Origin: a virus
Taxonomy: Duplodnaviria; Heunggongvirae; Uroviricota; Caudoviricetes
Direction: 5' to 3' (one strand)
DNA length: 53,981 nucleotides
Virus record (IMG/VR): IMGVR_UViG_2529292919_000008
The position numbers and the translations under genes were made by a program. Below are positions 53,312 through 53,662 of this stretch, one piece after another. Positions within the stretch are counted from its first letter, which is position 1. Each line of letters opens with the position of its first letter. The notes under the pieces were generated by a model. The model saw nothing but the letters and a program-made list of their open reading frames with translations. It made no database searches and was not told the DNA's origin.

Positions 53312-53662
53312 TTAAGGTTGTGATTCCGGAGGAGTCTTCAGAGAACCAGTAATTCTTCCCGGTAGCTTTCCTTTGTAGGTTATCCATACATTCTGCGCCT
53401 CTAAAATTACGGGGCGCTTTTCCGGCGACTGCTCATCCCCTTCACATAACCCGGCAGCAACATCCAGGAAGACCTGTCTGATGCTCCTTCTGGCTGCTGC
53501 CTCATAAAACTCCAGCGCGGCACCTTCAACACGGTCCAGCGAGATGTCCAGGTCAAAAATTTCACCGTCAAAGCGTTTTTTGTCCCGTAACGCTAAAGTT
53601 ACCGTAACTTTATTCTCAAAATTGCGGATCCCTTTCACAATCAGTTCATAGTTTTGAGTCAT
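53312..53662 (-). CDS. Hypothetical protein between holin and endolysin
   Basis: 116-aa ORF with no recognised family. Confidence 0.35.
   Translation of the reverse strand: MTQNYELIVKGIRNFENKVTVTLALRDKKRFDGEIFDLDISLDRVEGAALEFYEAAARRSIRQVFLDVAAGLCEGDEQSPEKRPVILEAQNVWITYKGKLPGRITGSLKTPPESQP

Follow-up and report, generated by a model that had tools for sequence, protein, structure and literature searches.

A ydfR-family (DUF1327) gene between the holin and endolysin genes of a lambdoid Escherichia prophage: a very probably optional accessory with a possible link to RNase E

The ydfR gene in the lysis cassette

The IMG/VR virus record IMGVR_UViG_2529292919_000008 (53,981 nt; this whole stretch is called the window) carries, between the P21-type holin gene and the signal-anchor-release (SAR) endolysin gene of a lambdoid prophage, a 116-aa open reading frame (ORF) which is almost certainly a genuine member of the YdfR/DUF1327 family. 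A preliminary description of this DNA, made from its letters alone, had reported the ORF with the correct limits from ATG to TAA and the correct translation, but erred in leaving it without a recognised family. Along its full length the ORF matches Pfam DUF1327 (PF07041), as do 29 of 29 aligned relatives; its score is 145.1 bits (E 7.5e-43), the cut-off being 25, and the match covers profile positions 1-92 of 93. It also matches PHROGs 406 and 2091, both annotated as function unknown, and its protein is 100% identical to RefSeq WP_000193280.1, a ‘YdfR family protein’ (E. coli Ecol_AZ146 and enteropathogenic E. coli (EPEC) E2348/69). Moreover, residues 1-74 share 81% identity and 96% positives with YdfR of the Qin prophage of E. 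coli K-12 (P76160; BLASTP, E 2e-46), the C-terminal tails of the two proteins not aligning in BLASTP, and the family signature [DE][KR]x[ED]G-x-x-[LF]-[ED]-x-Y-E-x-x-A is present at the junction of strand 3 and the helix. Together with the genomic position, the profile, the K-12 homology and the core signature make up four out of four features that define the family. At family level the finding is already known, the ORF being an annotated member of a catalogued family. An NCBIfam search gave no match for the ORF and a PDB sequence search returned nothing at E ≤ 10. Weak Pfam matches to ROF (E 0.08-0.18, residues 18-51), DUF6408 and SOCS fell below threshold and were treated as noise.

The position of the gene in the preliminary description is borne out by its neighbours (Table 1). 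The holin gene is assigned by PF04971 and the endolysin gene by PF00959 together with the triad E35-x8-D44-x5-T50, read from the sequence, whose spacing we take to be that of the SAR endolysin catalytic triad as established for R21-type endolysins; the endolysin N-terminus, MNAKIRYGLSAAVLALIAAGAPAP, likewise reads as a Gly/Ala-rich, weakly hydrophobic stretch. The holin begins with MDQMEK and therewith has a Met1/Met4 dual start, a pair that is expected for a holin/antiholin dual start. The Rz gene and the Rz1 gene embedded in it complete the lysis cassette, which as a whole is 99.9% identical to that of EPEC E2348/69. Co-orientation and tight spacing were also described correctly: ydfR starts 4 nt after the holin stop codon (TAA, 53667-53669) and ends 63 nt before the endolysin ATG, and by sequence comparison the final ~20 nt of this downstream spacer are common to YYZ-2008. 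Expression with the lysis genes, as had been proposed, is supported by gene order and spacing, which argue for translation from a shared late transcript.

This arrangement is conserved in all close loci (88/88): in each of them the reading frame is kept, the end of the holin coding sequence lies exactly 8 nt ahead of the ydfR ATG, and ydfR is followed by an endolysin gene. Across these 88 loci the holin is 75-100% identical to that of the window and YdfR at least 97% identical in most; considering that the holin identity varies and the spacing is constant, the region is therefore a mosaic with a fixed junction.

Table 1 Genes, signals and protein regions at the ydfR locus of the window
Feature	Position	Strand	Basis and remarks
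ydfR-family gene (DUF1327), ATG to TAA, 116 aa	53312..53662	minus	ORF list; translation starts MTQNYELIVKGIRNFENK
P21-type class II holin gene (pinholin type), 71 aa	53667..53882	minus	Pfam PF04971, E 1.7e-32; RefSeq ‘class II holin family protein’
SAR-type endolysin (lysozyme) gene, 177 aa	52715..53248	minus	Pfam PF00959, E 9.3e-24
Rz i-spanin gene, 164 aa	51578..52072	minus	Pfam PF03245, E 7.2e-51; RefSeq ‘lysis protein’
Rz1 o-spanin gene, embedded in Rz	51667..51852	minus	Pfam PF06085, E 1.7e-21
Shine-Dalgarno-like sequence GGGGAGAG	53670..53677	minus	within the last holin codons, 9 nt before the ydfR ATG; contains GGAG
A/T-rich spacer between ydfR and the endolysin gene, 63 nt	53249..53311	minus	no GGAG before the endolysin ATG
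ydfR indel segment, 427 nt	53240..53666	minus	13 nt in its place in VT2-Sakai (blastn, VT2-Sakai S-R region against the window)
Conserved core of YdfR	residues 1-74		three strands plus helix; signature R44-x-E46-G47-A48-x-L50-E51-F52-Y53-E54
Variable tail module of YdfR	residues 75-116		EKRPVILEAQNVWITYKGKLPGRITGSLKTPP

Core, tail and distribution of the family

The window protein is small, acidic, soluble and cytoplasmic, and consists of a conserved N-terminal domain and an exchangeable tail. It has a mass of 13.1 kDa, an isoelectric point of 5.5 and a grand average of hydropathy of -0.40, and neither a membrane segment nor a signal peptide was found in it, a membrane segment being excluded because the hydropathy over 19 residues peaks at only 0.69. 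AlphaFold2, run on a 29-sequence alignment, predicted three strands (residues 5-14, 18-27 and 34-43) followed by a helix (residues 50-74) with a predicted local distance difference test score (pLDDT) of about 85-95, and the tail (residues 75-116) with a pLDDT of about 50. Ten residues (R44, E46, G47, A48, L50, E51, F52, Y53, E54 and A57) are invariant in our alignment A1 and cluster at the strand 3/helix junction, and this core motif is retained by the most distant members at 31-51% identity. From the profile and structure searches that had been suggested for the ORF, the former thus provided the family, whereas the latter gave no informative fold match, as a Foldseek search against viral and PDB libraries returned nothing at E ≤ 1e-3.

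In Qin, the K-12 gene occupies the same slot (essQ-ydfR-rrrQ-rzpQ), flanked by a P21-type holin gene on one side and a lysozyme gene on the other; the stop-4 nt-ATG junction is the same, and so is the predicted core fold of the protein. K-12 YdfR differs in its tail, which is an unrelated 29 residues predicted to be helical, in contrast to the 42 residues (EKRP...TPPESQP, with a low-confidence model) of the window protein, and in the overlap of the ydfR stop and the endolysin start (ATGA), where the window has its 63-nt spacer. Such C-terminal modularity extends through the family, as seen in a survey of the C-terminal modules of proteins P0021, P0044, P0051, P0136, P0142 and P0147 and of loci L006, L008, L090 and L095: forms of 103 (K-12), 114, 116, 176, 183, 206 and 287 aa occur, the 114- and 116-aa forms carrying the tail of the window type and the 176- and 183-aa forms adding a coiled-coil-like extension. 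The EKRP...TPP module also stands behind an unrelated coiled-coil N-terminus (P0147), adjoining a Phage_holin_8 gene. A match to P0162, a G2F-repeat protein of 3128 aa with six matching stretches, was treated as spurious and repeat-driven.

The gene is frequent within one genus. By megablast, 4314 of 5426 complete E. coli genomes (about 80%) have a ydfR DNA match, which covers at least 80% of the gene length in 1903 of the 4314. Among 1.84 billion cluster representatives searched exhaustively with HMMER only 65 matched, and a pattern scan of 185,579 species, each represented by a single genome, yielded only Escherichia/Shigella loci and two metagenome-assembled genomes, from which it follows that the family is small and essentially restricted to one genus. 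The two metagenome-assembled genomes, labelled Veillonella parvula (L093) and Bacillota (L095), carry an E. coli-type holin-ydfR-endolysin cassette with 71-89% protein identity to the window and most likely represent contamination of metagenome bins by Escherichia prophage contigs. The gene also occurs in many Shiga toxin phages of the Stx1a and Stx2c types.

That ydfR might be a functionless relic or a mis-called ORF, carried passively with the lysis cassette, appears very improbable. Many truncated, frameshifted or fused variants are present in the databases, and the window prophage is itself defective through a Mu-like insertion in its capsid gene, as would suit a relic. However, the ratio of nonsynonymous to synonymous substitution rates (dN/dS; Nei-Gojobori, against divergent copies and with small counts) is below 1 in both parts of the gene, at 0.14-0.58 for codons 1-74 (core) and 0.10-0.32 for codons 75-112 (tail), and therefore points to purifying selection and a real protein. 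The residues that remain invariant across 30-100% identity, the confidently predicted fold and the conserved ribosome-binding site and spacing argue in the same direction, as does the stable accumulation of the K-12 protein when expressed (PMC13232886).

Presence, absence and candidate functions of ydfR

Considering the phages that carry this type of holin, 436 phage records were found, from which 101, all Escherichia phages, have a YdfR homologue. The statement in the preliminary description that holin and endolysin genes are normally adjacent therefore holds for about three quarters of these phages but not for the remaining ones. The comparison with the functional Stx2 phage VT2-Sakai is particularly clear: its S gene is 96% identical to the window holin gene at the nucleotide level, its R protein is 94% identical at the amino acid level (SAR region included), and the S stop codon is followed 4 nt later by the start of R, with no ydfR in between. 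The 427-nt segment that sets the two cassettes apart consists of ydfR with the spacers on its two sides (4 nt before it, 63 nt after it) and the first 9 nt of R. The junction ggggagagTAAnnnnATG is identical ahead of R in VT2-Sakai and ahead of ydfR in YYZ-2008, where ydfR likewise lies between the P21-type holin gene and the lysozyme gene, and in K-12 Qin.

Distant relatives reduced to the core occur at other sites: one lies between the lambda-like tail genes I and J (L003, 4001-4285), one between the tail genes M and L (L004, 449-667) and one directly after an Rz-like gene (L005, 503-718). These members have 71-94 aa and 31-51% identity, each with a DUF1327 match, and behind each gene lies a small ORF of opposite orientation; a megablast search for the hosts of L003 and L004 against phage records gave no match. 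Taken together, presence and absence beside the same holin and the relatives in tail modules indicate that ydfR behaves as a mobile accessory gene (‘moron’) of late operons and not as a lysis component. We consider it very probable that the gene is optional and not required for lysis.

Lysis regulators encoded beside holin and endolysin genes include the S21-71 antiholin isoform, LydB of P1 and the Mu gp25 ‘releasin’. YdfR resembles them in that its position, within or beside the cassette, implies co-expression with holin and endolysin. In contrast to S21-71 and Mu gp25, which are membrane proteins, it has no membrane segment, and it is dispensable, as the same holin/endolysin pair is found without ydfR in VT2-Sakai. 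YdfR lacks the membrane or periplasmic localisation of a lysis component and does not always accompany the cognate holin/endolysin pair; by these two features it is neither part of the lysis machinery nor of any known class of lysis regulators. The role in the lysis mechanism that the preliminary description had implied is consequently weakened by the near-identical S and R without ydfR in VT2-Sakai, by the missing membrane segment, by the relatives among tail genes and by the lack of a growth defect upon overproduction of K-12 YdfR (PMC13232886). The same description would have been refuted by the ORF being a known conserved lysis accessory gene, which applies by half: the gene is indeed known and conserved at this position, an action in lysis being conjectural.

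A more indirect influence on lysis is the alternative that the position of the gene invites. YdfR could be a cytoplasmic modulator, either a soluble antiholin or a tuner of endolysin supply, which adjusts the moment or the sharpness with which the pinholin/SAR-endolysin pathway is triggered; in a passive variant, ydfR would take the strong ribosome-binding site at the holin 3’ end and leave the endolysin gene behind a 63-nt spacer lacking GGAG, so that endolysin translation is lowered or uncoupled. The invariant position and spacing right after the holin in the 88 close loci and the co-expression implied by the shared ribosome-binding site speak for such an effect. In addition, the endolysin gene has no preceding GGAG in ydfR-bearing cassettes, whereas R of VT2-Sakai inherits the GGAG embedded in the holin gene, the ATGA overlap in K-12 suggests coupling, and the L005 member right after the Rz-like gene is still inside a lysis cassette. 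Against it stand the missing transmembrane segment and signal peptide, the about 77% of phage records with this holin that lack ydfR, functional Stx2 phages among them, the distant members within tail modules and the unaffected growth upon K-12 YdfR overproduction (PMC13232886), and the searchable literature yields no paper that ties ydfR to holin or lysis. In this respect, the Keio ydfR mutant is listed among the envelope-defect hits in the supplements of the Paradis-Bleau screen (PMC3879167), which would favour an influence on lysis, but the phenotype may arise when the resistance cassette reads through into rrrQ, the SAR endolysin gene that directly follows. As the cassette between essQ and rrrQ could act polarly, which is an equally simple explanation, the listing does not discriminate among the readings, and we discounted it as evidence of a role in lysis or the envelope. 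Overall, we regard a timing function, active and passive forms taken jointly, as unlikely.

The mobile character of ydfR would equally fit a gene that benefits the lysogen or acts in conflict, by superinfection exclusion, anti-defence or another host-directed role, and that is parked at a permissive late-operon junction with no relation to lysis or RNase E. The indel-like presence and absence, the distant relatives at different insertion sites, each beside a small opposite-strand ORF, the modular and rapidly exchanged tails (103-287 aa), the narrow host range, which is typical of accessory genes, and the maintenance of ydfR in cryptic prophages such as Qin all agree with such a role. However, the PADLOC defence models gave 0 families at E ≤ 1, the ydfR strand showed nothing promoter-like in a promoter scan, either inside the gene or ahead of it, the almost complete absence of ydfR reads in RNA-seq of growing K-12 (PMC13232886) argues against expression in the lysogenic state, and experimental hints to it are none. 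A host-directed role of this kind therefore seems rather unlikely to us.

The function that can be connected with experimental data is an association with RNase E or RNA, reported for the K-12 protein. When RNase G served as the bait of a two-hybrid screen, a fragment comprising YdfR residues 1-72 was recovered three times, and this fragment gave stronger signals with RNase E constructs (Göpel et al., RNA Biol 2026, PMC13232886). In the same study, full-length YdfR scored with Rne(1-597) in the two-hybrid assay, FLAG-Rne(1-598) co-eluted with Strep-YdfR, without demonstration of a direct contact, and DNase-resistant nucleic acid (RNA) co-purified with YdfR, while overproduction changed few transcripts. 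Considering that the interacting part of K-12 YdfR is the region conserved in the window protein, binding of RNase E or RNA is the best-supported mechanism. By analogy with the K-12 orthologue, the N-terminal domain of the window protein might thus bind RNA and/or RNase E, the latter at its catalytic N-terminal half, which we put forward tentatively, as possible rather than probable; from the 81% identity we infer that this association may carry over to the window protein, and with the same reserve that it may have a consequence for the phage. For the window protein, what is established here comprises its identity, position, optionality, solubility and predicted fold, the association with RNase E or RNA being that of its K-12 orthologue.

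The three strands and the C-terminal helix superpose on several double-stranded RNA-binding domains with 2.4-3.0 Å over 52-59 residues, and the RNA co-purified with K-12 YdfR is a second point of likeness (PMC13232886). The complete alpha-beta-beta-beta-alpha fold with basic RNA-contact motifs was nevertheless not found.

As a whole, the best explanation, which we hold to be on balance probable, is that ydfR is an optional late accessory gene with a non-lysis role, its product being possibly a modulator of host RNA metabolism. In the mechanism we propose, ydfR, inserted exactly between the P21-type holin stop codon and the SAR endolysin start, would use the ribosome-binding site located in the holin 3’ end, and, judging from gene order and spacing, YdfR would be made alongside the lysis proteins from the Q-antiterminated late transcript. 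Its N-terminal domain would bind RNA and/or RNase E (at the catalytic N-terminal half), with weaker binding to RNase G, and the protein would act late in infection as a modulator of host RNA metabolism.

If the K-12 result holds, the closest functional analogue of YdfR, by analogy only, would be T4 Srd, a small phage protein for which PMC13232886 cites binding to the N-terminal half of RNase E and a stimulation of host mRNA decay (Qi et al. 2015, PMC4649665). Both proteins would then come from phage genes and make contact with RNase E at its catalytic N-terminal half. They differ in that srd belongs to the early genes of a virulent phage and ydfR to the late genes of temperate phages, and in that YdfR overproduction barely affects the transcriptome. 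No sequence relationship between YdfR and Srd is known or was found, nor any sequence or fold relationship of YdfR to the known phage RNase E modulators T4 Srd, T7 gp0.7 and phiKZ Dip, the last of which (gp37/Dip) is an inhibitor of the RNA degradosome (PMC4980113). A still wider proposal, which we consider distinctly unlikely, would make the YdfR proteins the temperate-phage counterpart of Srd: late and holin-coupled, they would attach to RNase E at its catalytic half and alter the decay of late transcripts or host RNA, by which indirect route they would determine lysis timing or burst size in roughly one quarter of the lambdoid phages with a P21-type holin, with the tails giving specificity for RNA or partners.

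As a discovery the ORF carries little weight, as an annotated family member found in most E. coli genomes, K-12 included. Its residual value lies in its place in a very well studied lysis cassette, with the RNase E/RNA binding of the K-12 protein as the first biochemical lead, and in the clean 427-nt indel between near-identical S and R genes, which offers a ready-made isogenic design for studying lysis timing, burst size and RNA stability.

Surrounding prophage and minor features

The lambdoid prophage that carries the lysis cassette is interrupted by a Mu-like prophage of 36.4 kb (10250-46655) inside its protease-capsid fusion gene. With TG at its start and CA at its end, the element is flanked by a 5-bp AGTAC duplication (10245-10249 and 46656-46660) relative to E. 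coli E2348/69, with which its flanks are collinear, and contains a Mu-type transposase gene (11628-13670), a baseplate J gene, and tail-fibre and tail-fibre-assembly genes. Because of this insertion in the protease-capsid gene, the lambdoid prophage is defective for capsid production, with its lysis cassette intact.

Several further observations concern the cassette and its relatives. A terminator-like hairpin (9-bp stem and T-run; 53948..53926, minus strand) precedes the holin start codon by about 45 nt and would fit a read-through terminator that the late transcript passes before the lysis genes. Between endolysin and Rz there are ~560 nt (52157-52714, minus strand), whereas in many related phages Rz lies within about 18 nt of R. 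This gap contains small ORFs of 70, 43 and 57 aa, some of them hydrophobic, three of which are ‘hypothetical protein’ in RefSeq and none of which has a Pfam family, and a strong terminator-like hairpin (15-bp stem and T-run; 52624..52592). A search with Rfam found no RNA family across 51000-53981. In an IMG/VR contig (L041, 3349-4592), about 1.2 kb, possibly an insertion sequence (IS) element, are inserted between ydfR and the endolysin gene, and an IS1 is annotated in a similar cassette of strain MLI121 (H127). Additionally, the portal-protein gene (ORF 6796-9477, minus strand) has internal tandem repeats at 7250-7855, which appeared in the alignment with E2348/69 as self-offset matches of about 162 nt with 88-91% identity.
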